Shown: piece by piece, positions 5,119 through 48,287 of the stretch | Numbering within the stretch: the stretch's first letter is position 1 | Layout: each line of letters begins with the position of its first letter | Virus record (IMG/VR): IMGVR_UViG_3300025684_000014 | Coordinates: 1 to 64,000 of that record | DNA: 64,000 nt | Source of the DNA: a virus | Strand: one strand, 5' to 3' | Made by a program: the position numbers and the translations under genes | Notes under the pieces: generated by a model | What the model was told of the DNA's origin: nothing | Seen by the model: only the letters and a program-made list of their open reading frames with translations | Database searches by the model: none

Positions 5119-7680
5119 TTAAGCGCTAGGAGCGTCAAGAGTAATGTCAATTGAGATTGCTTCAATTGACAAAGGTGGTACAAAACGTACATTTGCTCTC
5201 AAAACTCCATTAATCCTATCAAGACGTGAAGCATTCAAGCTTACGGTAAGTGTCCCGCTTTGAGCATATCCAGCTTTTTCCATAGCCAAAGACATGCCAT
5301 CAAGTCTTTGAGTAAGGCTTTGAATCTGTTGGTCAGTGTAAGCTGCTCCAATAACAGGCAAACAAGCTGCTCTTACATTAGCAAGAATAGCGTTAGCTGC
5401 CATAATAGAAGAAAGCTTAGAGTAATCAGAAGTGCGAAGAGCTGAAGTGTAAATGGAAGAGATAACTCCAGATTGATCAATCATGCAAACGCGCAGCGCA
5501 GCAAGGTTATCAAGCATCGCTTTTGGTGTGCGTTGTGCAGGAGTTATTCCATCTACAACACCGCGTACAGGACCAATAGGCTCTGTACCTGGTTGAAGGC
5601 TAGAAAGCTTTCCTGCGATAGCGCTAGCAGCTGAAACAAAAGCTGAGCTTCTTTGGTTTGTTCTGATTCTTGAACCCTTATTAACATTACTTGTGCTTGC
5701 AGGATCTGTCATGAAGCCCCAAGAACCTACAACAATTGCATGCTTTCCAAGGTCAATTGGGTTCCCAAATGTATCAAGAGCTTCGTCTTGGTCATCAATT
5801 CCGTAAGGAATTTCGTTTGGCAAATCGTTACCATTAGTAAGAATTACACCACCAAAAGCAACTCCACCACGATAATCAGGATGACCAGCAAGAAGTTTTG
5901 TTCCAAGAACACCGGTACCTGCTTTTGTAACTACAAGCTCTCCTGCAGAAGTAACTTGGTATTCTGCAGGATTTCCAGCCCACTCAGAAACTCCACTATG
6001 CGAAATAGCAGGCTTAGAGCAAGGAACAATAGCTACTGTTTGAGAGTAATTTGTTGACGCTGTATAAGCAGCTTGAGCAGCTTGATGGAGGAAAGAAACC
6101 TCTCTTACCTCAACATTTGCAGCTGCCAGAAGAACACTCTCTGCAGCACCTTCTTCAGGGAAAGTCATCAACCTGTTGCAAACAGCTTCAGCAACAAGGT
6201 CTCCAACTAACTTGAAGTGATTAATAACAAATGGATCTTGGCTTACAATACTATTTGTTTCGTTAGAAATAAGATAGTCTGAAAGCGCTCTACTTCCACC
6301 AATTACTGACGGACGAAGCTTGTGTGAAAGCTTTTGGCCATCAGCCAAATCAGCAGACAATGTAAGTGTTGCAAAAGGTGTAACAACACTTACTGAAGTT
6401 GTACCAGCTACAGTAAAGTCTGCAGTTACGTGACATTCAACTTCACCTCTATCATTCCAAAATGACTCTACAGAAGCAGCTGCACCTGAAACGCTATGTA
6501 GATGCATATTTACTAAGTTCAAAAGATCTCCAACAGATTTGTTATCGTCAGATAAAACAATTTGCAAATCTCCGGAAACATAACTTGCTACATTTTCTGC
6601 CAAAAATGGATTCTTTCTTGCGAAGAAAAACATATTTGGTTCACCATTAAAAATATATTTCCAAAAGTAACCAAGCTTTGTTTTGTGCCACTGTAGTTGT
6701 TCTGCAAGAGTGTCACTGCTAGACAGCTCTACAGGAGCTGTGTCTGCATAACACCCTTCGCAATAAAGCATATCAATATTTTCAAACTCAAGATTTTTGT
6801 AAGCAAGCTCTGCTCCAGCATAACGCTCAAGATTATCAATATAATCAGGAGCGCTTCCATCAATACGGTCAAGATGGAAACTTAGGTTTGTTAATGTATC
6901 TGTATTGCTCGAATCAAAAATATCAACAAAACGAATTTCCCCTAAAAGATTTGCACTTTCACCACTTAGTCTTTCTACATTTGTTGTAGAAGAAAGAAGG
7001 TCTCCAAGAAGTTTAATATCTTCTAATGTGTAGCTGCCATCATTTACAAATTTGTTAAGAAGAACTGAATCACTTACAGCGTCTGCGGTAAACAAAAACT
7101 CTCCTGCAGGAACGTTAATTTCTACGTCAAAAGCAAGATCACCATCAGCTCTAATAATTCCTTCTGAGTCATAAACAAGTACACTATCCCCTCTCAAAGG
7201 CTTTGCATACAAGAGAACTCTTTGGCGAACAAGATTTCCTTCTACATAAGGCTTCAACACCATCTGAAGGCCTTCTAGTGTAGATTGAATGTTGCGATCA
7301 GCTTCTCCTTCTTGCATAAAGATAGGCTTGATCATAATGAGTGTTTCAAGTTCATTAGAGTCAGGAATTTCGCGCTTGATCATTACATGGCTGGGCTTTG
7401 CTCCAATGCGACTAACAACCAAAGGAGTTGAAGCATTAGCGTTTTTAGCAGCTACTGCTGCTCTAACCAGTTCTGATCTTGGATCAAAAACTGTTTGTAA
7501 CTCTACTCTATTTTGATAACCAAAAGGCTGAGCAATAAAACCGCTTTTTGCAGTACCAAGAGAAAAAAGTACTGGTCCTGAAGCAGGCTCTGGGGGAAGT
7601 TGAGCGCGCATATTGTTGTCATTAAAAACAGCAGTTAGCTCGCCAGCGATGTTTCGCATAGTTAAGTTCTGGTATGCCAT
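5119..7680 (-). CDS. contractile tail sheath protein
   Basis: 853 aa; sheath-like C-terminus (LRANVRFVPPLSIEAISIDITL); immediately upstream of the tube gene. Confidence 0.8.
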   Translation of the reverse strand: MAYQNLTMRNIAGELTAVFNDNNMRAQLPPEPASGPVLFSLGTAKSGFIAQPFGYQNRVELQTVFDPRSELVRAAVAAKNANASTPLVVSRIGAKPSHVMIKREIPDSNELETLIMIKPIFMQEGEADRNIQSTLEGLQMVLKPYVEGNLVRQRVLLYAKPLRGDSVLVYDSEGIIRADGDLAFDVEINVPAGEFLFTADAVSDSVLLNKFVNDGSYTLEDIKLLGDLLSSTTNVERLSGESANLLGEIRFVDIFDSSNTDTLTNLSFHLDRIDGSAPDYIDNLERYAGAELAYKNLEFENIDMLYCEGCYADTAPVELSSSDTLAEQLQWHKTKLGYFWKYIFNGEPNMFFFARKNPFLAENVASYVSGDLQIVLSDDNKSVGDLLNLVNMHLHSVSGAAASVESFWNDRGEVECHVTADFTVAGTTSVSVVTPFATLTLSADLADGQKLSHKLRPSVIGGSRALSDYLISNETNSIVSQDPFVINHFKLVGDLVAEAVCNRLMTFPEEGAAESVLLAAANVEVREVSFLHQAAQAAYTASTNYSQTVAIVPCSKPAISHSGVSEWAGNPAEYQVTSAGELVVTKAGTGVLGTKLLAGHPDYRGGVAFGGVILTNGNDLPNEIPYGIDDQDEALDTFGNPIDLGKHAIVVGSWGFMTDPASTSNVNKGSRIRTNQRSSAFVSAASAIAGKLSSLQPGTEPIGPVRGVVDGITPAQRTPKAMLDNLAALRVCMIDQSGVISSIYTSALRTSDYSKLSSIMAANAILANVRAACLPVIGAAYTDQQIQSLTQRLDGMSLAMEKAGYAQSGTLTVSLNASRLDRINGVLRANVRFVPPLSIEAISIDITLDAPSA

Positions 7681-34723: not shown

Positions 34724-34805
34724 AAGCGAAACTGGAACTAGTTTAACTAGGTAGAGAATTAGCACACTCTTTTATCCAGTCTAAGGAAGCCTTACTGACG
34801 AGCTT
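34724..34805 (+). ncRNA. hammerhead ribozyme HH2 (type II)
   Basis: AAGC-GAAA-CTGGA...TCCAG-TC, cut after 34781; TAAGG-AAG-CCTTA; CTGACGA-GCTT. All three stems are perfect. Confidence 0.92.
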
Positions 34806-35811: not shown

Positions 35812-36325
35812 ACTATCAGAACTCTTACCATGGTTTTTCTTTATAAGAACTTATCATGGCTAGTTACTAGTACAGAAGTTAATAACAGACGAGGTCTGGC
35901 TTCTTGTGACTGGTACAATTCACACATTCTCTTAGCTAAAACATGCTACAGCTTAGAGTCTTATTGATTGTATGTAAATATTCGTCAACACCCTCCCTCT
36001 GCCAAAAGATTAAATTAACACTGGTTCTGTAACAGAACGAAGCATAGGCAGCGTCACTCGCTAGCCATCCGGGTTTCACGATAAAACAACCCAGGCTCTA
36101 CATACGAGCAAAAAAAAATCGTGGGGTACGCTTCTCCCGTTACATGTAATGGTCCTTAGCCTCCTCTCTGCGCAAGGCAAGACGGCTCCCCAGAACCTAT
36201 TTAATCAGCTTGGACTGTAGTCAGCAGTAATTGACCCGATGGAATGCCTTCCAGGAGGCGCACACAATTTTTTAGAGGACCTGGAATTCCTCTTCTCACT
36301 CACTGGTAAAAGGAGAAATCTTACC

Positions 36326-39300
36326 ATGAGTAATCTTAACAAACCCCGCAAGACGGCGTTTGATCGACTGTCCGCTGAGCAGCAGCTCAACTGGCAGAAG
36401 ATCAGCGTCGCTTGCGAGAACGACGAGGGGTGCACTGCCCCTCTTGCTCGCAAGAGCAAAAAAGTCGTCAAAGTGCCCCGCCCTAAGCGTCGTCAGGCGC
36501 AAAGGGCGGCCAAGCGCGTTGAGCGCCAGAACCGCCTTGAGAGCACCATCAACAACCTCAGCACAACCTCTGAGGGCCCTAGCGCCCTCAAGGCTCTCTT
36601 TGAGGGCCTAATGGTTAGTGTGTTGGTGATCGGAATGGTGATGGGCTTCTTTGCCCTCACCAACGACACCAACACGCAGTCTATCGGCTTCGATAATGGT
36701 GGTGTGTACGCCGTGAACTCTGGGAGCTCCGTGAAGAACGCGGACATCACCAGCCGCCAAGGCGCTGTGAACGCGATTGACACCATCGATCTCGCCCTTG
36801 ACCTCGCTATCAAGCACGCCCCTTCACAGAGCGCTGACCTCGGCGCTTTGGGGCTTCCTCCTCGCAGGAGGAATGACTTTGAGGGTGACGCACCCTTAAA
36901 TCCCATGAAGGGTGATCACCTCCAGAAGTTCTGGAAAAATTATCTGCACGAGCGCGCCATTTTTGAGAGCAAGCAGACCTATGCACGTCGTAAGCGTGCT
37001 TTGATCGCTCGCCTCAAGAGGGCGCAAAAGCAGGCGGCGGCAGCCCACGCCAAGAAGATGAACGCTCACGCGAACATCCTCACCGGCCAGCTCTGCTACC
37101 TCTCGAAGCGCGCCCAAGAGCACAGCGACGAGGATTTGTTGATTCAGGTCAACAAGGCCTTTGAGCTTGCTCAGGCCGCGAAGAGCGAGGAAGAGATCAT
37201 CGACCTGGTCCGTGCTCTCGAGCGTGAGATCAATGGCGACCTCTGGCGCTTTGACAACACCATTTACTTCCAGTACGAGTGTGACGCCCGTCGCTCTGCT
37301 GGTACTTCTGATCAGACGGGCAAAAAGGAGAAAAAGACATTGCGTAAAGCATTTGTCTTTGCAATTAAGCTCATTGCCGCGATGATCATCTTTAAGCTTC
37401 TTCAAGGGTTCTTCCCTGAGGATAGCTTTGGGTTGATCTTCGTTGCTGTGGTCGGCGGGACTGATGTTCCTACCGATTTTGTGGGCGACGATCTTGAGAC
37501 GGTTGCTGAGAAGCTTCAGCCTCACAGCAACCTTGGGCAGGCCCTTGCGTCCATCGAGCGTCGTATGGGGCACTTGCCGATGAGCACCATGACCCTCCTC
37601 CCTGGAGGTGATGGCGCACCAAAGGTCATCTTTAAGACCAACGGGCGCGACAACATCGGCCTTGTGCCCTTCGCTCAGGCGTTTGGTCTCGAGGCTTTGG
37701 GCGAGGACGACGTGCTTCTTATCGAGGCTAATGGCGTTCAGCAGGACGCCATCAACGAGGCTTGCCAGGCGTTCGTCCAAAAGGGCTATCGTCCAGTCGG
37801 TACGCGAATGCTCATTAAGGCGTTCAACGACGATGGGACTAGGGCTCTTGGCGCTGATTATATCGAGGCTATCGACGTCTTCCTTGGCAAAATGGTTGAC
37901 GTCAGGTCTTACTTCAGCCTGGGCAGTGCTCCTGCGCTTAAGACCTTCACCCTCGATGACGACATCTACACCGAGCGCGAGGGCGAGGACGAGGGCCGTA
38001 AGGTCTTGTGGTTCACGGGTAAGGCCAAGCACATTTTTGCCGATCTCGACGGCGTTGAGGGTGGCCTTCCCATCTCCGAGAAGGCAATGGAGGCGATCTT
38101 CGGCTCCAAGAACCCCGGTCAGCCACGCTTGATCGTCAAGCTGTGTGACGGCGTGGCTGCGATGGTCAAGGGTAACTTTGCCCCTATGGCTGTCCGCGCC
38201 TTCTTGCAGGCTGACGGCTCCTGGAAGTTCCTCACCCGTGCTCATTTCGAGAACACCGATGAGGGTAAGGCTGAGTGGCGCAAGGGCTATGACTTCGTCT
38301 TCATCGAGGACGACACGCCCAAGGGCCGTGGGAAAGACCAGCTCAAGACCGAGGATATCAAGCTCTTCGACGCGAATGGTAAGATCTCGGGCTGGCTCAT
38401 CGCTCAGGCCAAGAATGAGCAAGGCAAAAGCTTGGTTTCGTACCAGGTGCTCGCTCTCGTAGCCAAGAGTGCCGGCCTTGATGCAATCGCTGCGCACATG
38501 GAGAGCTTGATCTCTAACAGTGTGCAGAAGAGCGTTGATCAGGTCGAGCGCGATCTTGACAAGCTCGACATCCCTGGTGCTACCGTGAGCGACTTGGAGA
38601 AATTCAAGGAGCTCTTGAGCGCCATCGCACCCGGGTCTGCCCGCCAGACTCGTAAGAACCACCTTGGCTTCGGTGCTGAGGTGTTCACTGGCTACATCCA
38701 CATGAACGTGCTCATTAAGAAGGGCACAATCGTCGTGGGTGATGGCTTCGGCCTCAACAACCGTGCGATGGTCAAGCGCCGCGGCAAGTTTGGTGCAGAG
38801 GATGCTTGCGGCGGTAAGAACCCCATTCTCGACCACCAGCAAACGTGGGTCGGCAAGCTGATCCGCATTGGTGACGTCCAAAAGCTCAGGGAGAGCTTGG
38901 ACAACGGCAAGCCTCTCAGCGACGAAGAGAAGGCTTTTGCTGCTGACTTGTTTGGTGCTGACAAGCTCGATAAGGTCATTTGGATGACCGAGCAGATCAA
39001 GTGGGTTTTGAGCTTCGCTCCTGCGCTCACCCGTGGCTCGATCCTCATGAACGCAGAGGACGTCGCTGACCTTGCGGGTGATGATGACGGGGACCAGCTC
39101 TGGTTCTCGTTCGGAGATGAGCGCATCCTCGAGGTGTTCCGCCTCATCAAAGACCAGGCACAGGGCAATACGCTCTATGCCATTGAGAACAATAAGGGTG
39201 CTCAGCTCCCCTCCGAGACGGGGGCTAGAGACTTTAAAGATCTCTTGACCGCAGAAGGTGACGAGCTTACCGCGCTCTGCCGGTTCATCATGGCTCCTAA

Positions 39301-42300
39301 CAAGGGTCAGGGTCCAGTCGGCTACATGGCCAACATCTGTACCATTCTGATGGCGACCTTCCAAAAGGTTGACAATGGGAATGGCGGGATGGCTTATGAA
39401 AACGATTGGGTTGAGCGCCTTCAAGCCACACTCAACCTCATGCAACAGACGTCAATCGATCTCCAAAAGAGGATCTACTTGACGATCTGCCTCATGAGGT
39501 GGACCAAGGGTGACCTCCGCAAGGAGAAGCTGGACGGTCGTGGTCTTGTGCCTGGGTACGACTTCCCTGGCCTCGCACACGACTTCAACCCGAACGGCTT
39601 CCACCCTGAGAGCTTCAGCTCAGACGAGTACAAGGCAGCCTTGACTCAGGTTGAGATGCCCCACGTCCCAAGCCACTGGGTCTCAGGTGAGAGTTTCCCT
39701 GTTTGCACTGACAACGACAGTCAGTATGCAATCAGGGCGATTGGCTCTTGGTTGATCTGGGAGGTTTTGAGCCTCATTGTCACAGGTAAGCCTGCTGACT
39801 GGGGCGATGTTGCTGATGACGCGAAGGGCGGCCTTGATCCCTGGAGCGTGAGCAGCGAGTTTATCGGTGAGGATGGTCCTGACTTTGAGGCTTTTGCCAA
39901 GAAGTACGCCCTTACCGACGAGCAACATGCTCAGGTTCTCAACGCCTGGCGCAAGAGCCCTTCCGAGCTGTACAGCTGGAAGACGCAAGGCAAGGACGAG
40001 CCATTCGTCCAGAGAGCGCCTGCGGCTCTTGAGCTCAACCATGAGATCGCTATGCGCCTCAAGGAGAGCTACAAGCCCTCTGGCGAGGTGAAGGTTCACT
40101 TCCGCGAGGTTGAGGCCGAGATCAAGCGTCTCTTCTCCACTGACTTTGCTGGACAGGAGTGGCGTGCGCGCAAGTTTGTAGATACCCTCATCGACGGTTT
40201 CTATCTCGAGGCTGCGCTCGCTAACAACAATAAGGCAACCTCAGAGCGATTCCAAAACTCTGAGGAGCGCTCAGGGGTCGAGGCTCTTGGCTATATCCTT
40301 GAGTCGCTTGAGAACAGCTTTACGGCTTCTACAGGGGCTACAAAGGCTGACATCAAGCTGGCTCGTGCTTTTGCGGCTGCTCTCAACCCCCGTGAGCGTC
40401 GCGACAACAAGGCTCGCGAGATCGGTGTCTTCGTGATGCTCATTTCTTGGTGGACGTTAGAGTACGCAAACCAGGAGTGGATCGACCTTATCCAGCGGAA
40501 CATCACTCCTGAGGAGGGGGACAAGACTCCTAAGTACAAGGTCGCGATGGCTAAGTACGGGGTCGACGAGGCAACCGCCAAGAAGATGGTGAATGCCAAG
40601 CACTCAAAGACGATTGCGCCTGAGCTCCTCAAGTTCATCAAGGGACTCGTCAATGAGCACTTCTCGGTTAACGCTGAGAAGATGGAGGCTAAGGCCACCT
40701 GGCTCGTCGATGATGCTCTGAGCGCAGCCGTCAAGGCGATCGAGAACACAGAGATCGTGATGGCTAAGCGTGACGTCCTCAAGGAGGTCAAAGAGGCGAC
40801 CATCCGCTGGACCGACATGCGTGACAGTTGGGACCAGCGTCGTGTTGCTGTTGAGATCCTCCTCGCGGCTACAGGCTGGTTTGAGGCTTCGTGGTTTGAG
40901 GCTATGAAGGACGAGCTCAAGATGATGGCTTCCCAGACTACCAAGACTGTGGGTCAAATCCGTAAAGAGCTCAAAAACGCTGCTCCCGACGCTGACGTCG
41001 CGGCTCTCAAGACTGAGCTCAAGGTTGCATCAAAGGCTTCTTCTGCAAAGAAGTTGCTTGCGATGCTGGCTGATGATAGCCTCGGCTATGTCACTATCCT
41101 CAACGCGCTCTGTAACCCAAAGCAGAATCCTCTTGCGCGTGAGTTTGTCACCACAATGCTCGACAACAGCGGTCCTATCGTGAACGTTGAGCGTGCGTGG
41201 CAACGTGCGGATGATCTCGGCTGTGACAAGTCTGACGTCCGCGACTGGACCTGGGAGCTCGGTGACTGGGTGACTCACAAGGGCAAAGGCACCGACCCCA
41301 ACACGGGGATGCCACGTCAGAACAAGACAGTACTCTACGCGCACTCACGCGTCGAGTGGTCTTTGACTGACACGGCCACTGCACGCTTTACGCGTATTCT
41401 TCTCGAGGGTGGTGTGAGCATTTACAAGCTCACCAAGGTGCCTGCTCAGAGCTTCAAGACCTGGCGTTACTTTGACGCTTTCGTCTATGAGGCAGAGCGT
41501 ACGCCCGATTACTCCCTGGTCCATGGTGTCGGTCACCTCGTCAGCCTTGCTATCCCTACCCAAAAGCAGGCCGACGAAGAGCGTTACCGCCGCATGGCTC
41601 ACCTCGGTCACCTCGAGTGGGCTTGCCAAGCGTGGACTGATGTCGACCCCACGCTTAGCCAGGCAGACGTGCGCTATCACGTTGAGGGTCTCCGTGAGGA
41701 GATTGATCGCGTCGAGGCTCTCAAGGACAACGCCCTCATGGTGAGCTGGGGTCACCTGCTTAGTCCTATTACTTGGGGCATGCAGATCCATAGCTGGGCT
41801 GGCAAGCTGACCAAGAAGGCCATTAACGGTCGTGCTTGGGCTGCACTTGCACAGCTTGGCAAACGCGACCCCGCCTACCACGACCAGCCCAAGGTCAACA
41901 ACCTCGGGGCTGAGATCGTGACCACCGAGCTCAAGGCCCTTAACTCCAATGGCAACCACATGCCATTCAAGCGCAACTTTGGTCCTCGTAACCAAAGCCA
42001 GGCTCTTCAAAGGGCTAAGCGCATGGCGGGCAAGAACGAGGGTGAGCTTGACGACACCACCGACCTTGTGCCCTTCACCTTCGGTGATGACGAGAACACC
42101 CAGCACACTTACGCTGAGTGGCTCGACTTTATCGAGGGTGTAGCCGCCAACGGCACTGGTCCTGCTAGCGCTATGGTCCTGGCAGGCCTCTGGTACGGTG
42201 CTCATGGTGGGCGTATTGCCGCTCTGGATCCCAACGGCTCAATCTTCTCCAAGGAGATTGCTGAGAAGATCCAAAAGCGTCTCTTGCGCTGCCCCGCCTA

Positions 42301-42427
42301 CGAGGTTCGCCTCCACATTGAGGACCTCCTCAAGGGCGAGTACGTCGCTCCTGTTAGCAAGCCAACTGACAAAGAGAGCGCGGAGGCCTTCTTCGCCGTG
42401 CTTCGCCGTAAGGCTGGCCTCGCTTAA
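36326..42427 (+). CDS. single-subunit double-psi-beta-barrel RNA polymerase (YonO / eukaryotic RdRP-like) with N-terminal hydrophobic helices
   Basis: Motifs in the expected order: G.G..IS, Q.R...KG, KNP, LAGDDDGD (GDDDGD at 39077-39094), VG.MAN, SIDLQK. AAGGAG SD before ATG 36326 (2033 aa). Confidence 0.8.
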   Translation: MSNLNKPRKTAFDRLSAEQQLNWQKISVACENDEGCTAPLARKSKKVVKVPRPKRRQAQRAAKRVERQNRLESTINNLSTTSEGPSALKALFEGLMVSVLVIGMVMGFFALTNDTNTQSIGFDNGGVYAVNSGSSVKNADITSRQGAVNAIDTIDLALDLAIKHAPSQSADLGALGLPPRRRNDFEGDAPLNPMKGDHLQKFWKNYLHERAIFESKQTYARRKRALIARLKRAQKQAAAAHAKKMNAHANILTGQLCYLSKRAQEHSDEDLLIQVNKAFELAQAAKSEEEIIDLVRALEREINGDLWRFDNTIYFQYECDARRSAGTSDQTGKKEKKTLRKAFVFAIKLIAAMIIFKLLQGFFPEDSFGLIFVAVVGGTDVPTDFVGDDLETVAEKLQPHSNLGQALASIERRMGHLPMSTMTLLPGGDGAPKVIFKTNGRDNIGLVPFAQAFGLEALGEDDVLLIEANGVQQDAINEACQAFVQKGYRPVGTRMLIKAFNDDGTRALGADYIEAIDVFLGKMVDVRSYFSLGSAPALKTFTLDDDIYTEREGEDEGRKVLWFTGKAKHIFADLDGVEGGLPISEKAMEAIFGSKNPGQPRLIVKLCDGVAAMVKGNFAPMAVRAFLQADGSWKFLTRAHFENTDEGKAEWRKGYDFVFIEDDTPKGRGKDQLKTEDIKLFDANGKISGWLIAQAKNEQGKSLVSYQVLALVAKSAGLDAIAAHMESLISNSVQKSVDQVERDLDKLDIPGATVSDLEKFKELLSAIAPGSARQTRKNHLGFGAEVFTGYIHMNVLIKKGTIVVGDGFGLNNRAMVKRRGKFGAEDACGGKNPILDHQQTWVGKLIRIGDVQKLRESLDNGKPLSDEEKAFAADLFGADKLDKVIWMTEQIKWVLSFAPALTRGSILMNAEDVADLAGDDDGDQLWFSFGDERILEVFRLIKDQAQGNTLYAIENNKGAQLPSETGARDFKDLLTAEGDELTALCRFIMAPNKGQGPVGYMANICTILMATFQKVDNGNGGMAYENDWVERLQATLNLMQQTSIDLQKRIYLTICLMRWTKGDLRKEKLDGRGLVPGYDFPGLAHDFNPNGFHPESFSSDEYKAALTQVEMPHVPSHWVSGESFPVCTDNDSQYAIRAIGSWLIWEVLSLIVTGKPADWGDVADDAKGGLDPWSVSSEFIGEDGPDFEAFAKKYALTDEQHAQVLNAWRKSPSELYSWKTQGKDEPFVQRAPAALELNHEIAMRLKESYKPSGEVKVHFREVEAEIKRLFSTDFAGQEWRARKFVDTLIDGFYLEAALANNNKATSERFQNSEERSGVEALGYILESLENSFTASTGATKADIKLARAFAAALNPRERRDNKAREIGVFVMLISWWTLEYANQEWIDLIQRNITPEEGDKTPKYKVAMAKYGVDEATAKKMVNAKHSKTIAPELLKFIKGLVNEHFSVNAEKMEAKATWLVDDALSAAVKAIENTEIVMAKRDVLKEVKEATIRWTDMRDSWDQRRVAVEILLAATGWFEASWFEAMKDELKMMASQTTKTVGQIRKELKNAAPDADVAALKTELKVASKASSAKKLLAMLADDSLGYVTILNALCNPKQNPLAREFVTTMLDNSGPIVNVERAWQRADDLGCDKSDVRDWTWELGDWVTHKGKGTDPNTGMPRQNKTVLYAHSRVEWSLTDTATARFTRILLEGGVSIYKLTKVPAQSFKTWRYFDAFVYEAERTPDYSLVHGVGHLVSLAIPTQKQADEERYRRMAHLGHLEWACQAWTDVDPTLSQADVRYHVEGLREEIDRVEALKDNALMVSWGHLLSPITWGMQIHSWAGKLTKKAINGRAWAALAQLGKRDPAYHDQPKVNNLGAEIVTTELKALNSNGNHMPFKRNFGPRNQSQALQRAKRMAGKNEGELDDTTDLVPFTFGDDENTQHTYAEWLDFIEGVAANGTGPASAMVLAGLWYGAHGGRIAALDPNGSIFSKEIAEKIQKRLLRCPAYEVRLHIEDLLKGEYVAPVSKPTDKESAEAFFAVLRRKAGLA

Positions 42428-42502
42428 TTAATAATCCTGGCGTGATGCACTATCCAAATATCTAGCCGTCTTTTTCGGTGAGATAAGTGTGTTGCGTCAG
42501 GG

Positions 42503-42566
42503 CGTGTCAGGTCGGAGCAATTCTGCCGAGATCTCTGATGAGTATGTCTCAGGACAACGAAACACG
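42503..42566 (+). ncRNA. hammerhead ribozyme HH4 (type III)
   Basis: CGTG-TC, cut after 42508; AGGTC...GATCT; CTGATGA; GT-a-TGTC-tcag-GACA-AC; GAAA-CACG. Confidence 0.88.
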
Positions 42567-42604
42567 AATCAGCAGCTCAAAATACATTCATAAGGAGAAT
42601 AAAA

Positions 42605-43096
42605 TTGAGCGATTTCGATAAGCTCCTTGCCGCCCTCATGGCGGGGGGTTCGACTGTCAACGTGACCGTAATCAACGCGGTACACCCTGGCGGTGTAGTC
42701 AACATCAAGAACGGGTGCGTTGATGTTGAAAAGTCTAATGCACCCACCCCTAAGAAGGCTCAGGGGGAGAAGAAGAGCCAGGAGGAGCCACTCCACGATG
42801 ACCACACCTCTGCAGCTGAGGATGCTGTTGGTGGGGGTGACGAGGCTCCAATCGACACCACCCCCGCTGAGCGGAATCGCGGTGGTGGTACTCCAGAGGG
42901 GTCACCGCTCCTCGCTCAGGTGAAGGGCAAGCTCCTCGCCTTGAGTGAGGAATTGACGAACAGGGTTGTCAGCCATATCGATCGCATCAGCTCGCTGAGC
43001 AAGGACGATCTCGAGAAGATCGCTGCGATTGAGGACAGTGACCTCGACAACCTCGACGAGATCCTCGACAACCTCTTTCCTGACCTTGCTTCTTAA
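42605..43096 (+). CDS. hypothetical acidic protein
   Basis: TTG start with an AAGGAG SD; island codon usage. Confidence 0.65.
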   Translation: MSDFDKLLAALMAGGSTVNVTVINAVHPGGVVNIKNGCVDVEKSNAPTPKKAQGEKKSQEEPLHDDHTSAAEDAVGGGDEAPIDTTPAERNRGGGTPEGSPLLAQVKGKLLALSEELTNRVVSHIDRISSLSKDDLEKIAAIEDSDLDNLDEILDNLFPDLAS

Positions 43097-43251
43097 ACAA
43101 GGTTAACTTTAAACTCATCATACACTATCACTCCTAAATCATTATAATATGGTGATAACGACTCCGCCAAACTCCGCCAAGCGGAGCTTGGCACCCCTGT
43201 CGGGGTGAGGAAATGGAGGGCTCTGCCCCCCAAACCCCCCGTGTTGTAGGG

Positions 43252-43714
43252 GTGAGGTGATGTATGGTGAAAGGAAATCAGTATGTCTGACACAACTTTC
43301 GACCCAAAGTTGCTCTGTTTTATTTCCCCCTCGGGGGAGTTTCAAGCACTAGCTCCTCTGATCGCACTTGTGCGTGATGAGCAGCTCGTTTTCCAGGCAA
43401 ACCGGCCTCTTTTGGAGGGGTTCGGGTGCCAAAGCGATGAGCAGACCAAGCAGGGATTCGACTTTCTCAAGTCAATCTCTCTCTCGTCCACTTTTAATTC
43501 ATGGGCGAATGAGGAAGAGGGGTCCTCCGGGATTTCGTCTAAGTCACTGGTCGCGTCGGCAACGACGCCCGGTGCAATCCTGACCCTCGTGGGCCTTCTA
43601 AGGAGTCATCCTGACGCTTCGGCGTCAGGAACCTTGACCGTCAACTACGCCAACCCCGCGCGCCGCGCAGGGGTGGGGCGTCCCCGCTAACTAAACCCCC
43701 ATACATCACCTCAC
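43252..43714. repeat. 16-bp perfect inverted repeat enclosing the 135-aa ORF
   Basis: GTGAGGTGATGTATGG (43252-67) and CCATACATCACCTCAC (43699-714). Confidence 0.85.
43283..43690 (+). CDS. hypothetical protein
   Basis: 135 aa with an AAGGA SD. Confidence 0.6.
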   Translation: MSDTTFDPKLLCFISPSGEFQALAPLIALVRDEQLVFQANRPLLEGFGCQSDEQTKQGFDFLKSISLSSTFNSWANEEEGSSGISSKSLVASATTPGAILTLVGLLRSHPDASASGTLTVNYANPARRAGVGRPR

Positions 43715-43829
43715 ACCGCTTAGCGCGTTCTTTTCCGTAAGGAGACGAGACGCTGAGTGGCACCTCTTTGAGTAGAGGGGCGTAGGATAAGCGTTAAAAG
43801 CGTAATCCTTGGTCGCCTAGACCTAAACT

Positions 43830-43894
43830 CGTCCCCCTAAAGCAGAGTAAAATCTGTGGATGGGGCTGATGTGGCTCTTTCGGGAGCCGAAACG
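43830..43894 (+). ncRNA. variant hammerhead ribozyme HH5 (type III, core CUGAUGU, short stem III)
   Basis: CG-TC, cut after 43833; CCCC...GGGG; CTGATGT; GGCTC-tttcgg-GAGCC; GAAA-CG. Confidence 0.55.
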
Positions 43895-44895
43895 CATCAG
43901 TAGTCACCGTTGATGACTTTAAACTCAACCCCTGTGAGTTAGGGCAAAATACTTGCTACCTTTAGGGGTAGCGCCTCAGTGTGTGTGGGTGAACCACCAT
44001 CGCACATAGAAGGAAGCAGTGTAGGTACTGTGACCTGATGAGGTAAAAACGGTTGGCAACCATGTTGCTGGGCACCTATGCCTCACACTAGCTATCCTAC
44101 AATAGCTAAGAGAAAAATAGGGAGGTTAAATCACCTCGGTCTTTTTTAAAGGTTGAAGAATGGGGTTAGCGATTATAGACATGATCGTGAAGCTCAATGC
44201 GCTATGAAGGGAACATAGTAGCGCGACTCGTTGTGAGTATAAAAACCGAAAGCGGAAATCCTAGGTATCCGTAAGTAGAAGAAGAATGTCTCAGGTTGTT
44301 GAAACTGACCTGGATTACTTTGGATTGATCCCCAAAGAATTAAATAGTCAGCGGCTAGCATAGTATGCCGCGATCTTGGATTGGAACCCCAAGATCAAGG
44401 AGTTGCTTGTAACTTCATCACTACCTTATAAGGGGCAATTCTGGAAGCTTTTCCAGAGCTGATAGATTGTCTTTTATAGGGTAGGCATCACAAGATCGAC
44501 ATTGTTGGGCACGGCAATGTTTAAAGATTAGCAACTATTAGTTGTTATAGTGTCCTGCCGTAGACCGATTACTGTAGAGTAATCATCATAGGCGGGGTAG
44601 GGACGGTATCTGTGGATACTATAACCCTTCAATTTTATGCCCCTTCAGACTGGCTACTTCTTCGTAGTTAGGGGACAGGCAATGCACTTTAGTGTAGCAG
44701 AGGCCAGTCAGCCGGTGATAGGTATGCCGGTGGTGATTTTGAGGTTAATCGTACTCAAACTCAAGAACCAAGACACCTGCGGGGACATAACTCCCTTTGA
44801 TCGTTGACCAGGCGATCAGCTATCTACGGATAGGCACATTGGGCGACTGCAGGCATGTAGTCTAGAAGTGAATGCTAAGTACATCCCTCACACAC
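43895..44895 (+). ncRNA. large, densely structured non-coding RNA (unassigned)
   Basis: No ORF of 60 aa or more on the plus strand; tandem pseudoknots at 43902-43956, 44089-44122 and 44500-44555; 19-bp helix 44421-39/44466-84 with 4 G-U pairs; many further hairpins. Confidence 0.65.
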
Positions 44896-44909
44896 GAAAG
44901 AAGGTCGTC

Positions 44910-45026
44910 ATGACTGGTATCGTGGAGTGTACATCAGGCTTCCGCGTCTTTTGGCGCGGTTGCCTGATCGGTGCGTTTGCCTCTTTTGAGGTGGCGCACC
45001 GTGAGCTCCTCTCTATCTCAGAGTAA
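44910..45026 (+). CDS. small protein, 38 aa (not in the ORF track)
   Basis: AAGAAGGTCGTC-ATGACT start context nearly identical to that of 33350; island codon usage. Confidence 0.55.
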   Translation: MTGIVECTSGFRVFWRGCLIGAFASFEVAHRELLSISE

Positions 45027-45483
45027 AATCTGAGTAGGGAGTGAGCTTCTCCTGAGCATGACGTTAAAAGGCTCAACATGCTTTGGCTGACAGTATCGAC
45101 TGTTGACTCGAGCAAAATAGTGTCTCTTTTAGAGAGGAGATGCTATTTAGTCTTACGGCTCTTTATTTAAGGAGACGTTAAGGCAAGCCCTTTTATCAGG
45201 GTATAGGTTATAGGTGAGACACCGAGCCTAGTAGAATATATATTCTATGAAGTTACGTTTAGTAACAAAAAAGTTCACCATGGCAGGGTAAGTAAAAGCC
45301 CGGTGAGGAAGGTAAGCTTCTTAATATGTCATTTATGGCCACCAAGGTTGGTGCCAGAGGGTTCTAGAGTCCACTACGTGCGAAGTTACAGCTAGTACGC
45401 AGTGAACTCATTCAAAGAGACTGTAATCTCTTTGCTCTGGTAGCCGGTTCAATCCCGGCATGGTTATTTAACGCACCCCGTAG

Positions 45484-45590
45484 CTGGGGTCGAAACACAG
45501 TCTTTCTCGGATGTAGGAGAGAGTTAATAGGAGTCGCGTACCTATTGTTAAAACTGTGTCGGGCTAGCTTAGGCCCCTGAAGAGAACCAG
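45484..45590 (+). ncRNA. hammerhead ribozyme HH6 (type II)
   Basis: CTGG..TC-GAAA-CACAGT...ACTGTG-TC, cut after 45560; GGGCT...GGCCC; CTGAAGA-GA-a-CCAG. Confidence 0.85.
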
Positions 45591-45636
45591 ACATCCCGCC
45601 TTACTTCAGCCTCGTTGCATATAAAGGAGAAATACT

Positions 45637-46005
45637 ATGCAATTCCTTAACATCTCTAACCACCCCGTAGAGGGTTGGTCAGCGTCACAGCGCGAGGCGG
45701 CCCTCGCGCTCGCTCCTGAGGCTGACTTGCTCGATGTTGATTTTCCAACCCTCGACCCTCAGTGGTCGAGGGTAAAGGTCAAGGTGAAAGCGATCGAGTT
45801 TATAGACGATCTCGACCCTCGGCCTGGCGCGAGGGCAATGGTAGCGGGTGAGGAGCCTATAATGTGTTTCTACCTCGTGCGTGAACTCCAGGCACTCGGG
45901 GTGGCCTGCTACAGCGCGACCACTGAGCGCGTGGTCGAGGAGCGCGACGGTGTAAAAACCTCGCGCTTCTCATTTGTGCGCTTTCGTGAGTGGCCTGCTC
46001 TCTAA
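45637..46005 (+). CDS. Csx20-like putative cyclic oligoadenylate ring nuclease (candidate anti-type III CRISPR)
   Basis: N.SNHP...WS..Q..AA, D..FP..DP, V.GE, ATTER, F.FVRFRE pattern of the Csx20 family; strong AAAGGAG SD. Confidence 0.6.
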   Translation: MQFLNISNHPVEGWSASQREAALALAPEADLLDVDFPTLDPQWSRVKVKVKAIEFIDDLDPRPGARAMVAGEEPIMCFYLVRELQALGVACYSATTERVVEERDGVKTSRFSFVRFREWPAL

Positions 46006-46274
46006 GAGTTAGGTCGCTCCGGGCAGAGTAAACTGCCATAAAAAATCCAGGTAATGTTATTCACCTGCTCTTACAATAAGAGAAAAGAAATAACAAACTT
46101 CTTTGAGGAGACGAGACTCGAAGAGACCGCTAAGGTAATGTAGCGGTATATAAATAACGAGGCGTCACCCCCAATAAGTCTAATAGGCAGGGGGAACTAC
46201 ATCCACGCCTACATCGGAACAACATAAGAAGCTTAGGAATTTCTTATGCCGTGAGCATTATCTGGGATGATTAG

Positions 46275-46439
46275 GCAGGGTTAGCTCAGTGATAGAGCGC
46301 TAGCAGCCAACCGTCTGTTGTAAAGAAAGTCAAGCCTAGGAAACTTGATAAGTAATTACAATGGGTTAAGGTAAACATACGAGCTTCCTATCGTATGGGC
46401 AACATGCTAGAAGCGTTGGTTTGATTCCAGCACCCTGCA
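46275..46439 (+). ncRNA. tRNA-like RNA with a ~100-nt structured insertion replacing the anticodon loop
   Basis: Acceptor GCAGGGT/ACCCTGC; D-arm GCTC-AGTGATA-GAGC; anticodon stem CTAGCA/TGCTAG; T-arm GTTGG-TTTGATT-CCAGC. Confidence 0.75.
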
Positions 46440-46549
46440 GCAGCCAAGAATGTATGAAGCCTCCACGTGGCTCTTGGCGGAAATGGCAATCATTGAAGTG
46501 ATTGCGTCAGCTAATATCATACACAAACCATTAAAAAGGAGAAAAAGAC

Positions 46550-46678
46550 ATGTGTATCTGTTGTCATCAGTACACTGTCAGATGGTGGAAAATCCGCCGT
46601 CTGACAGCAAGCACTGTGCTTTACGGAGCACAGTGCGATACTTGTGGCGCTGACTGGGAAGAAACAGTCAAAGAGTAA
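46550..46678 (+). CDS. small Zn-ribbon protein, 42 aa (not in the ORF track)
   Basis: AAGGAG SD; MCICC...QCDTCG. Confidence 0.55.
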   Translation: MCICCHQYTVRWWKIRRLTASTVLYGAQCDTCGADWEETVKE

Positions 46679-46867
46679 TAGCGCCGCAACCCCTAGAGAA
46701 TCCAAAAAGCTTGATTCCAGAGCGTATGAATTGGGTACTCTAGGGGGTAAACACTTTTCTTACACCAAACTCAAATTTGAGAAAACCTCGATTCCAAAGC
46801 GTAAAGAGACATTTTAGTCAAAAGTCGCGGCGGAAGAAAAATTCTCAGGATTAAAAGGATCAAAAAA

Positions 46868-47152
46868 ATGAGAAAGCCTAAGAAAATAATAAGCTTTTGT
46901 GAGTATCACGAAAAGTTCAATTGTGAGGAGTGTGAGGGGCTCCTCTTTGCTACCTTCGAGGAGGTGGCGAAAAGGTACGGTGACTTTGATGTCACCTACC
47001 GTAATGGAGTATTGGAGGGGGTGTGGATTAAGAGCTGGAGCGAGTTTACTTGCTCCAGCTTTAAGAACCACTACAAAGGAGGGTGGGTCATTATAGAGCC
47101 CGGGGCATGGGCTTGGGAGGTTAGGAAAGTGCGCGTGGAGGCGCACGACTGA
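46868..47152 (+). CDS. hypothetical protein
   Basis: 94 aa with an AAGGA SD. Confidence 0.55.
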   Translation: MRKPKKIISFCEYHEKFNCEECEGLLFATFEEVAKRYGDFDVTYRNGVLEGVWIKSWSEFTCSSFKNHYKGGWVIIEPGAWAWEVRKVRVEAHD

Positions 47153-47463
47153 TGGGTGGCGCCATGTGCTTAGCAATCTCAGTCATCTCCCTCGTGTGGG
47201 GAGGGATGCACTTGGGATGGGGTGATTGGTATGTGGCGCCGTTTCTTCTTGTCTTTTTAACTCCTTCTCTTTACGAAGAGACACTGTTGAAAGGATACGA
47301 GGAGACGGCAAGGATACACGTAGACAACGCATGGTACATCTTCACGTATCGTGCAGTACTGTTTTGTATTCTATGTGTATTCTACATCCCATGGATCTTA
47401 GTAAGTGACATTGCAAAAGACTCATGGGAATATCTCGAGGAGACTTTTTCTCCTAATCTTTAA
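47152..47463 (+). CDS. hypothetical membrane protein
   Basis: Hydrophobic segments; coupled start. Confidence 0.5.
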   Translation: MGGAMCLAISVISLVWGGMHLGWGDWYVAPFLLVFLTPSLYEETLLKGYEETARIHVDNAWYIFTYRAVLFCILCVFYIPWILVSDIAKDSWEYLEETFSPNL

Positions 47464-47535
47464 ACTTTTTTTAACTTTTTTTGTTTCAGACTTGAAACAT
47501 CAGCAAGTAATCTGTAAATAATAAGGAAAAATATA

Positions 47536-47961
47536 ATGAGTAACGAGACTACATCTTCAACCCTTTCTCAAACCCTTTCTTCAAACCCTTCTCAGACCCT
47601 TTCACACAAGACAGTTCAGCAAGCACATCAAGCTCTGTTTGACAGCCTTCCTGAGAGTCTTCGCAAGTACTTGCAGATTCATGCGTTTACTTCAAAGGTC
47701 TCTTGCATTAAGCTTCAGAAGGGAGCGTTCCGCAGTTTCATGGCGGAAGGCGGCCGTATTCTCAAGACAGATAACTTCGAGATTATTTGTCAAGATGCAG
47801 TTAATACGATCTTGAATCACGTTGTTTCACAAGATGCAACAATGCGTGTTGATGCACGACACCTTTACAACGATTACCTGGGTATTCACGTATACCTTGG
47901 TACTAACAACGTAGATGATCTCATTAAGTGGATCGCCGCTCAGAATGGTGGTAATCAATGA
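47536..47961 (+). CDS. hypothetical protein
   Basis: 141 aa; AAGGA SD; short S-Q-T-L-S repeats at the N-terminus. Confidence 0.6.
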   Translation: MSNETTSSTLSQTLSSNPSQTLSHKTVQQAHQALFDSLPESLRKYLQIHAFTSKVSCIKLQKGAFRSFMAEGGRILKTDNFEIICQDAVNTILNHVVSQDATMRVDARHLYNDYLGIHVYLGTNNVDDLIKWIAAQNGGNQ

Positions 47962-48287
47962 GTAGCGAATCTTTAAGAGAGAATGTTTACAAGACAGCAC
48001 TTAGAGACTTACAAGATCTACCTTCTTGGGGTAGAATCGTACTGGCTTTTCTAGTGTTGTTTGTTATTGTGAAATGGACGCCTATTTTTGATTTGTTATA
48101 CCTGGCGTTCATGATTGTTTTAGTACCAACAGCATTTCTTATTTGTTTAGCATTATTTTCTATGGATACTTTTAATATGTTTCTCAGTACAGTTAATATG
48201 ATTGCTGAGAGTATTAAGCAAGGTATCAGGGAGAATAATCAGGATGCGCCGGCTGATCAGCAAGTTGATCAAGAGGAGCAGGCTTAA
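47958..48287 (+). CDS. hypothetical membrane protein
   Basis: Two hydrophobic helices. Confidence 0.55.
   Translation: MSSESLRENVYKTALRDLQDLPSWGRIVLAFLVLFVIVKWTPIFDLLYLAFMIVLVPTAFLICLALFSMDTFNMFLSTVNMIAESIKQGIRENNQDAPADQQVDQEEQA

Follow-up and report, generated by a model that had tools for sequence, protein, structure and literature searches.

What does a virus keep in nearly two kilobases of DNA that hold hardly any gene? The question arises from the IMG/VR virus record IMGVR_UViG_3300025684_000014, a linear record of 123,667 nt with an estimated completeness of 79%, of which we analyzed the first 64 kb (hereafter, the window; positions refer to it). On the plus strand, between an open reading frame (ORF) of 135 aa and one of 122 aa similar to Csx20, lies a gap of 1,946 nt (43691-45636). 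An initial annotation, made from the sequence letters, had proposed that most of this gap is a new large non-coding RNA matured by ribozymes. Part of that proposal stands: the gap is non-coding and structured, and ribozymes probably set some of the RNA ends. The idea of one single RNA was not supported. The explanation that we consider the probable one is a plus-strand phage operon punctuated by processing elements, of which the gap would be the non-coding stretch, rather than one RNA gene.

Coding potential and folding of the gap

The near-absence of ORFs was borne out. With translation tables 11 and 4, and with TAG or TAA read as glutamine, no ORF of the gap exceeds 75 aa, and no other part of the 123,667-nt record, both strands considered, goes as far without an ORF of at least 80 aa. 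It holds nine small ORFs (34-75 aa), none of which had a significant match in Pfam or PHROG (best E values 0.026, 0.1, and 0.22). Furthermore, indels of 1-4 nt between strains fall in the part that contains the two longest of them, and break those in 44868-45115.

The gap had also been described as folded in a strand-specific manner and rich in G-U pairs, and this was confirmed, with a contribution from nucleotide composition. The plus strand of 43848-44604 folds at -264.6 kcal/mol (z -6.7) and the minus strand at -202.5 kcal/mol (z -3.9); the plus strand of 43834-44638 reaches a z of -6.95, and the plus strand folds better in most of the 200-nt windows over 43600-45400. The minimum-energy fold of the whole gap contains 93 G-U pairs on the plus strand and 46 on the minus strand. 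G exceeds C on the plus strand, and this composition alone favors both the plus-strand fold and the excess of G-U pairs. Among the single structures that had been pointed out, the 19-bp helix 44421-39/44466-84 has standard pairs at 19/19 positions, four of them G-U, and both hairpins of a twin pair are present in the minimum-energy fold. For 44776-44853, the multibranch domain was reproduced with the window sequence (z -2.8), but its middle hairpin is lost in L005, a metagenome contig of a sister strain (z -1.5).

Rfam 15 was run at gathering scores on the 64 kb, where it returned seven transfer RNAs (tRNAs) only, and in E-value mode on 2.7 kb, on 14.5 kb, and on 805 nt alone. In E-value mode, the only matches other than noise (small nucleolar RNA and microRNA models) were sub-threshold ones, to a hepatitis delta virus (HDV)-like ribozyme and to Hammerhead_3 (42501-42568). 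GOLLD, ROOL, HEARO, OLE, RNase P, and group I and II introns gave nothing at E ≤10 in the 2.7 kb or in the 805 nt alone. The initial annotation could not assign the RNA to a known large ncRNA, and in agreement with this no family reached its threshold.

Putative processing sites and RNA species

The only meaningful Rfam match within the gap was to RF02682. At 44639-44708 this model scored 29.4 bits (E 0.0078 in the 2.7 kb), and the L005 copy, which does not have one bulged A, scored 38.4 bits (E 5.9e-4). The helices P1, P1.1, P2, P3, and P4 follow each other in the order of the nested double pseudoknot, with the predicted cut 5' of P1. Drawn by eye, P1 is GCCCCU(U)/(U)AGGGG-C, P2 is ACUGGCU/GGCCAGU, P3 is ACU/AGU, and P4 is UGCAC/GUGUA. 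The model alignment covers P1, P3, and P4; the 7-bp P2 pseudoknot, which the model does not score, and the 2-bp P1.1 were both assigned by eye. The base pair of P1 is a G-C accompanied by a bulged A, where HDV-like ribozymes usually have a G-U. In the modeled fold, the C after P4 (GC-AGA) lies at the expected place and is a candidate for the catalytic C of J4/2.

The second HDV-like copy in the window (Table 1) differs from the first in the letters of P1-P4 and keeps every helix, and the same holds for its copies in the strains. It begins three bases behind a tRNA-like gene (46275-46439), found by ARAGORN with introns allowed at the default threshold and having a 73-nt insert in the anticodon region. 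Overall, we regard the HDV-like fold as well supported, and cleavage is predicted. Because this ribozyme is internal, a transcript that crosses the gap would be split at 44639. The continuous folded RNA of the initial annotation is at odds with it, as well as with the lack of 684 nt in the sister strain.

Then, we placed on 41000-48000 the assembled contigs of four metatranscriptome runs (X12, X13, X20, and X22), which belong to three studies. Transcription had been put forward as a check, and parts of the stretch are indeed present in the RNA libraries of the three studies, whose contigs cover 43271-43747, 43848-44604, 44008-44211, 44651-44891, and 45209-45380. In both X12 and X13, the deepest contig of the 7 kb is that of an RNA that we call RNA-1: it spans 43848-44604 at a depth of 88.9 in X12 and 43847-44601 at a depth of 150.7 in X13, while the other contigs have depths of 7.3-18.8 (X12) and 8.3-8.7 (X13). 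Each of the two deep contigs carries one substitution and two one-base insertions relative to the window. Past 44601, the X13 contig runs into adapter-like letters, which we take to be the Nextera adapter.

In the same two runs, no contig falls on 41000-43846. This stretch includes the 135-aa ORF, in which the strains show 100% identity. The shallow contigs of X20 and X22 cover 43271-43747, 44008-44211, and 44657-44891, and one of X12 covers 45209-45380. Only X20 and X22 gave contigs on 43106-43807 (depth up to 11.3), namely 43271-43712 in X20 and 43559-43747 in X22, and 41000-43105 is without RNA contig in all four runs. Such uneven depth is hard to obtain from DNA carry-over, although the lack of a contig does not by itself mean that a part of the 7 kb is silent and counts here only as this contrast. 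With a deep contig on RNA-1 and none over the upstream ORF, RNA-1 would therefore have to be far more stable than its neighbors or be separately made. A single species of about 1.7 kb, as had been predicted, does not agree with these data: a separate contig of ~757 nt was seen and no 1.7-kb one, and the HDV-like ribozyme is internal. No circular joint was reported in the contigs, which are a poor test for circular RNA.

A 14-nt hairpin, CAGA-GUAAAA-UCUG, occurs twice in the gap, at 43843-43856 and 45019-45032. In sister strains, one copy or the other has a GNRA tetraloop, GUAA, and in the window the contig of the abundant RNA starts inside the loop of the first copy.

To compare strains, metagenomes were scanned with an alignment of 16 Csx20-like proteins, which gave 80 loci from 345 relatives; these relatives lie in metagenome contigs that are mostly long (up to 596 kb) and cellular by appearance. 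Among the 80 loci, only L004 (44864-46812) and L005 (the whole locus) carry the gap region. L005 aligns to 43030-43948 and 44631-47500, with ~93% identity over the aligned parts, and is without the 684-nt insert of the window (Table 1). In L005, a hammerhead-like fold (see below) is followed by a small hairpin or pseudoknot, five bases, and then the HDV-like ribozyme. The identity between the strains is 100% over 43200-43800, 82% beside the indel, 78-79% over 44800-45000, 93-95% over 45000-45400, and again 100% from 45500. The insert is single-copy in the record and has no plus-strand ORF of at least 30 aa; within it lie the 19-bp helix, both twin hairpins, and numerous local hairpins. Its only variants in the RNA contigs are 44026 U>C, which turns a G-U pair into a G-C, and two added A's.

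No homologue of the insert was obtained with three probes in IMG/VR or with blastn against 'phages', and Rfam gave no match to it. The IMG/VR probes, of which three were taken from the insert and a fourth from the HDV-like ribozyme, returned chance loci only, with no BLAST similarity barring a 27-nt stretch with a hairpin, and an IMG/VR search with the flanking proteins and the protein of an upstream 2062-aa ORF returned one spurious locus, L002. A mobile element or an intron was considered for the insert and rejected, as it has no inverted ends, no second copy, and no Rfam intron match. The RNA contig is also continuous across the left insert junction. Moreover, introns have consensus ends, U / G for group I and GUGYG / AY for group II, and the indel borders (A...CAA) show neither.

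The 27-nt stretch mentioned above (44311-44337) contains the first of the twin hairpins, with a 6-bp stem and the loop AUUGAUCC. The stretch is identical at 26 of 27 positions to 4709-4735 of L003 (= L084), an unrelated 39.7-kb IMG/VR contig in which the match sits in an intergenic leader and no other similarity is present. The 18-mer of the twin hairpins is found once in each of 29 loci of the genome collection, with ~17 expected by chance on a rough estimate. A role of the twin hairpins as a CRISPR-repeat mimic (an RNA anti-CRISPR) was discarded, as there are no arrays and no flank similarity.

The initial annotation had placed the RNA between two hammerheads. This was not confirmed in the form described. 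At the 3' side, the site called HH6 fits a descriptor of the type II hammerhead. Its upstream part consists of a hairpin (45476-89) and then UC-GAAA (45490-95); stem III is the 7-bp helix ACACAGU/ACUGUGU, into which 47 nt are inserted; stem I corresponds to the hairpin 45561-76 (5 bp), followed by CUGAAGA (45577-83) and a 2-bp stem II. The core CUGANGA, the GAAA, an NUH cut site, and a permitted three-stem topology are all present, and L004 and L005 have this site without any change. The descriptor has two matches in the 64 kb, HH6 and 34728-34801, both on the plus strand, and 7 of 200 dinucleotide shuffles gave any match; these odds flatter HH6, because the descriptor, like the relaxed type III descriptor used for the 5' site, was composed after seeing its site. 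Rfam hammerhead models matched neither site at E ≤10, and RF02276 searched alone misses HH6, possibly because stem III is enlarged by 47 nt and stem II has only 2 bp. In Perreault et al. (2011; PMC3088659), stem II of type II hammerheads is described as going down to one or two pairs, and rare core variants are reported. A possible 4-bp AGCU/AGCU loop-loop contact of HH6 with the upstream hairpin was noted by eye only.

The 5' site, HH5, has a type III fold with a stem I of 4 bp, a stem II of 6 bp closed by a UUCG loop, and a stem III of 3 bp. Its core reads CUGAUGU, with a U in place of A9, and thus departs from the invariant core nucleotides. HH5 is the sole match of the relaxed descriptor in the 64 kb (6/200 shuffles give any), and a strict-core descriptor has no match at this position. 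In L005, the core is UCGAUGU (UC instead of C3-U4), and the base of stem I changes from C-G to U-A. This part of the claim is therefore weakened by a non-consensus, unconserved core: HH5 is hammerhead-like, and its activity appears doubtful from the sequence.

At 42501-42568, just behind the 2062-aa ORF, there is a type III hammerhead whose core is complete and which scores 24.8 bits with Hammerhead_3 (against 48.5). L005 has it as well, at 5694-5761.

Downstream of the HDV-like ribozyme, covariation was evaluated on an alignment of the window, L005, and L004 over 44864-45640. RNAalifold predicted 252 pairs, six of which stay paired through changes on both sides. Shuffled alignments gave a mean of 2.8 such changes (sd 1.3), with 8/500 reaching six, and slid controls gave 0-2. 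Five hairpins contain the compensated pairs (44933-44968, 44970-45000, 45001-45049, 45053-45075, and 45367-45409), the last of which has one both-side change (C-G to U-A), two mismatched window cells, and one one-sided change. In a divergent X13 RNA contig, 44783 G>A together with 44794 C>U, and 44796 U>C, keep the hairpin 44781-44796 paired, but only in a register chosen to fit; in the minimum-energy register, G44783>A breaks a pair. Some long-range pairs are also drawn, none of which varies. The compensatory changes give modest support to a structure in the second non-coding segment, which we call RNA-2, and to RNA-2 only. The search for homologues and covariation that had been suggested thus yielded some helices with compensatory changes in the 3' part, and left the insert without a homologue and without evidence of this kind.

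The 3' portion of RNA-2 includes a possible tRNA-like element (45275-45467). A canonical T arm, GCCGG UUCAAUC CCGGC (45443-45459), abuts an acceptor-like helix of seven positions with one mismatch; a 122-nt structured insert replaces the anticodon arm, and the D arm is weak. The compensated hairpin 45367-45409 is part of this element. At the lowered ARAGORN threshold needed for this element, three of the five matches in 14.6 kb fell in or over long ORFs and were taken as false. RNAalifold gives a different 5' partner to the 3' acceptor strand.

Table 1. Elements of the locus, in order of position
Feature	Positions	Strand	Basis and remarks
Non-coding tail behind the 135-aa ORF	43691-43829	+	Identical in L005 until ~43816
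Hammerhead-like type III fold (HH5)	43830-43894	+	Predicted GUC cut after C43833
Abundant RNA species (RNA-1)	43848-44604	+ (presumed)	~757 nt; true ends may be 43834 and 44638
Strain-specific insert, 684 nt	43949-44632	+	Missing in L005; junction AAA^TTTT, ambiguous by 1-2 A
HDV-like ribozyme	44639-44708	+	RF02682 (HDV-F-prausnitzii); predicted cut 44638/44639
Body of the second non-coding segment, run of hairpins	44709-45274	+	RNAalifold, pair counts
Possible tRNA-like element	45275-45467	+	ARAGORN with introns, lowered threshold (-ps90) only
Type II hammerhead (HH6)	45476-45585	+	Own descriptor; GUC cut predicted after C45560
Leader of the Csx20-like messenger RNA (mRNA) after the hammerhead cut	45561-45636	+	76 nt; from sequence
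Second HDV-like copy	46443-46521	+	RF02682, 24.1 bits; 27.1 in L004 and L005

Weighing the explanations

In the explanation that we favor, one operon transcript would run from the 135-aa ORF to the Csx20-like gene, as suggested by the orientation of the genes and by the lack of promoter and terminator signals above chance. A promoter scan found 3 promoter-like sites against 4.2 expected, which is not above chance, and a terminator scan found 11 terminator-like sites against 4.3 expected, mostly internal hairpins of the RNAs. The HDV-like ribozyme and the type II hammerhead, whose folds are described above, are predicted to cut this transcript at 44638/44639 and 45560/45561. The products would be the tail of the upstream mRNA, RNA-1 ending at 44638, and RNA-2 (44639-45560, 922 nt), and a Csx20-like mRNA with a short leader (76 nt) would be left over. 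RNA-2 would consist of the HDV-like ribozyme at its start, the compensated hairpins, the possible tRNA-like element, and most of the hammerhead at its end. The 5' end of RNA-1 could be produced by the hammerhead-like fold (cut after 43833), by another nuclease, or by a start. Since 684 nt of RNA-1 would be the accessory insert, the same slot in L005 would yield only ~120 nt. More in general, ribozymes seem to punctuate the plus-strand block along its whole length, from 33 to 46 kb.

Abundant, very structured, and without a family match, RNA-1 is a candidate new large RNA. Its most likely role would be that of a stable structured RNA which acts in trans while the phage infects its host; it would resemble GOLLD and ROOL in general kind without belonging to either family. 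A bolder version, which we advance tentatively and would not expect to hold, sees RNA-1 as the first member of a new class of ~0.8-kb phage RNAs: a swappable cassette in a ribozyme-ended 'cargo slot', with the hammerhead-derived fold at its 5' side and the HDV-like ribozyme at its 3' side, perhaps serving as an abundant decoy or scaffold in counter-defense or host take-over, given its place in an accessory island beside a Csx20-like putative ring nuclease. The ends left by the ribozymes (5'-OH and 2',3'-cyclic phosphate) would permit circularization by the RtcB of the host; no RtcB was found in the record, which is 79% complete.

Several points speak against the processed operon. Neither of the two ribozymes, whose cleavage is a prediction, reaches its Rfam gathering score, which for RF02682 is 44, compared to 29.4 in the window, 38.4 in L005, and 24.1-27.1 for the second copy. 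From assembled contigs, neither the strand nor the true ends nor the level of an RNA can be read, and depth reflects expression poorly. Both deep contigs come from one study. Their ends fall short of the predicted cuts, by 14 nt at the hammerhead-like fold and by ~35 nt at the HDV-like ribozyme, so that trimming, other processing, or breaks of the assembly graph must be assumed. Strong folding is not specific to the gap, as flanking coding windows fold well too (z -7.2 at 45900-46099), and the covariation comes from three close strains, with the structure predicted from the same alignment. Lastly, the insert has no homologue and is dispensable in the sister strain, and L006 and L007, two loci with 54% identical Csx20-like genes, have ORFs upstream of them instead of the gap; the region is therefore lineage-specific.

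One alternative survives best, although we consider it unlikely: the insert would be selfish or incidental DNA (a non-autonomous mobile element or a recombination scar of a mosaic phage), its RNA would be merely co-transcribed and nuclease-resistant, and the rest of the gap would be a fast-changing spacer with processing sites. The insert is present or absent between strains that are ~93% identical, beside a flank that is 100% identical to ~43816; Rfam, IMG/VR, and 'phages' searches gave no homologue; the more distant relatives are without the whole gap; and the identity along the locus is patchy, in the style of mosaic phages. Furthermore, the last letters of the insert are TCAA and hairpins lie close to either end, a combination that we take to be reminiscent of IS200/IS605-type ends. 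Against this, there are no terminal inverted repeats, no target duplication, and no transposase or reverse transcriptase nearby, and the insert has a single copy. Its fold is far better than that of shuffled sequences (z about -7), its RNA has a depth 5-20 times that of the neighboring contigs, and helices of the adjacent 'spacer' are kept by compensatory changes.

A single ncRNA (non-coding RNA) of ~1.7-1.9 kb, excised at each end by a hammerhead and folded as one molecule, appears improbable. The whole gap is ORF-free and structured, it would be framed by a hammerhead-like fold toward its 5' side and, at the other side, by a type II hammerhead of good quality, and RNAalifold draws some long-range pairs, though none varies; but a conserved HDV-like ribozyme sits mid-stretch, the RNA contigs are separate and of very different depths across 44604-44651, 684 nt are missing in a sister strain, and the 5' hammerhead core is non-consensus and unconserved. 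Least probable of all is that the stretch, directly upstream of the Csx20-like gene and on the same strand, serves that gene as a long cis-regulatory leader, or codes for small proteins through its nine ORFs of 34-75 aa. The hammerhead would trim the leader to 76 nt, no small ORF matches a protein family significantly, indels between strains interrupt those in 44868-45115, and the insert has no plus-strand ORF of at least 30 aa.

Gene setting and relation to known phage RNAs

The metagenome runs that contain the stretch are from marine, estuary, river, and sediment samples. Up to ~33 kb, the minus strand carries genes of structural size; from 33 kb, the plus strand carries the 2062-aa ORF, two small ORFs, the gap, the 122-aa ORF, small ORFs, and tRNAs. 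The seven tRNAs lie from 49073 onward, and the phage tRNA cluster thus starts 3.4 kb downstream of the gap. For the 2062-aa ORF (36239-42427), which had been read as a YonO-like polymerase, no sequence match was found in Pfam, NCBIfam, or PDB; L005 and L007 have relatives of it of at least 1,837 aa.

The 122-aa ORF (45637-46005) is a full-length match to the PADLOC Csx20 model PDLC01397 (E 2.9e-23) and a weak one to NCBIfam CAS_Csx20 (21.7 bits against 70), and a Shine-Dalgarno sequence, AAGGAG, lies 7 nt ahead of its ATG at 45637. Csx20 is treated as a ring nuclease in a 2024 preprint (10.1101/2024.09.24.614671). The phage copy may counteract type III CRISPR signaling.

The 135-aa ORF is bracketed by two 16-nt segments, 43252-43267 and 43699-43714, that are perfectly complementary to each other (self-BLAST); the X20 RNA contig 43271-43712 fills almost exactly the space between the two arms. 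After the Csx20-like gene, within 46006-47151, ORFs are again scarce, with 808 nt in which none reaches 80 aa, and a patch at 46500-46700 is only 47-70% identical between strains.

Large, highly structured phage RNAs are known. Kretsch et al. (2025; PMC12286853) describe GOLLD and ROOL as such RNAs, encoded by phages and prophages, often near tRNA islands and with no known protein partner, and report that GOLLD expression rises during phage lysis. RNA-1 is similar in being large (about 0.6-0.8 kb or more), structured, phage-encoded, and followed by a tRNA cluster 3.4 kb downstream, and its contig is the deepest of the 7 kb, which may be set beside the rise of GOLLD at lysis in that text. It differs in matching neither model at E ≤10 and in being strain-specific instead of broadly conserved.

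The closest relatives of the HDV-like element would be the theta and minimal HDV-like ribozymes of Caudoviricetes and RF02682. Kienbeck et al. (2024; PMC10879173) list 526 theta (HDV-like) ribozyme matches that do not adjoin tRNAs, 493 of which are in non-coding regions, mostly sense to the nearest gene and of unknown function. The element at 44639 shares with those described there the nested double pseudoknot and the strand of the neighboring genes and, like the 493 orphans, is in a non-coding region far from ORFs. The copy at 46443 is directly behind a tRNA-like element, and theta ribozymes likewise follow tRNAs. On the other hand, the scores are 29.4 and 38.4 against a threshold of 44 and refer to RF02682 instead of the theta motif, the phage is marine rather than from the gut, and the ribozyme at 44639 is behind a large or small RNA that is not a tRNA.

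Similarly, in Perreault et al. (2011; PMC3088659), several hammerheads flank genes in prophages, and the authors propose that processing divides long transcripts of phages into pieces the length of a gene. Here too, several same-strand hammerhead-type motifs flank single genes, and HH6 has the type II topology and very short stem II described in that text. The pseudoknot from loop I to the 3' tail of that type II consensus is not evident in HH6. Unlike in those operons, the freed pieces would include ncRNAs of 0.8-0.9 kb, and an HDV-like ribozyme and tRNA-like elements are intermixed with the hammerheads.

Thus, the kind of element is known, both for large phage RNAs near tRNA islands and for orphan phage HDV-like ribozymes, while the sequence of RNA-1 belongs to no known family. 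RNAs of the GOLLD and ROOL type are among the least understood, and the origin of their ends is unsettled. The locus joins evidence of RNA accumulation in the environment with candidate ribozymes at the RNA ends, and it offers a natural with/without pair, in which sister strains with near-identical flanks do or do not have the 684-nt insert. It would also provide a function for part of the 'orphan' HDV-like ribozymes that Kienbeck et al. (PMC10879173) left without explanation. What looks like a wall of structure in a phage genome can be a string of separately processed modules, and not one giant RNA.

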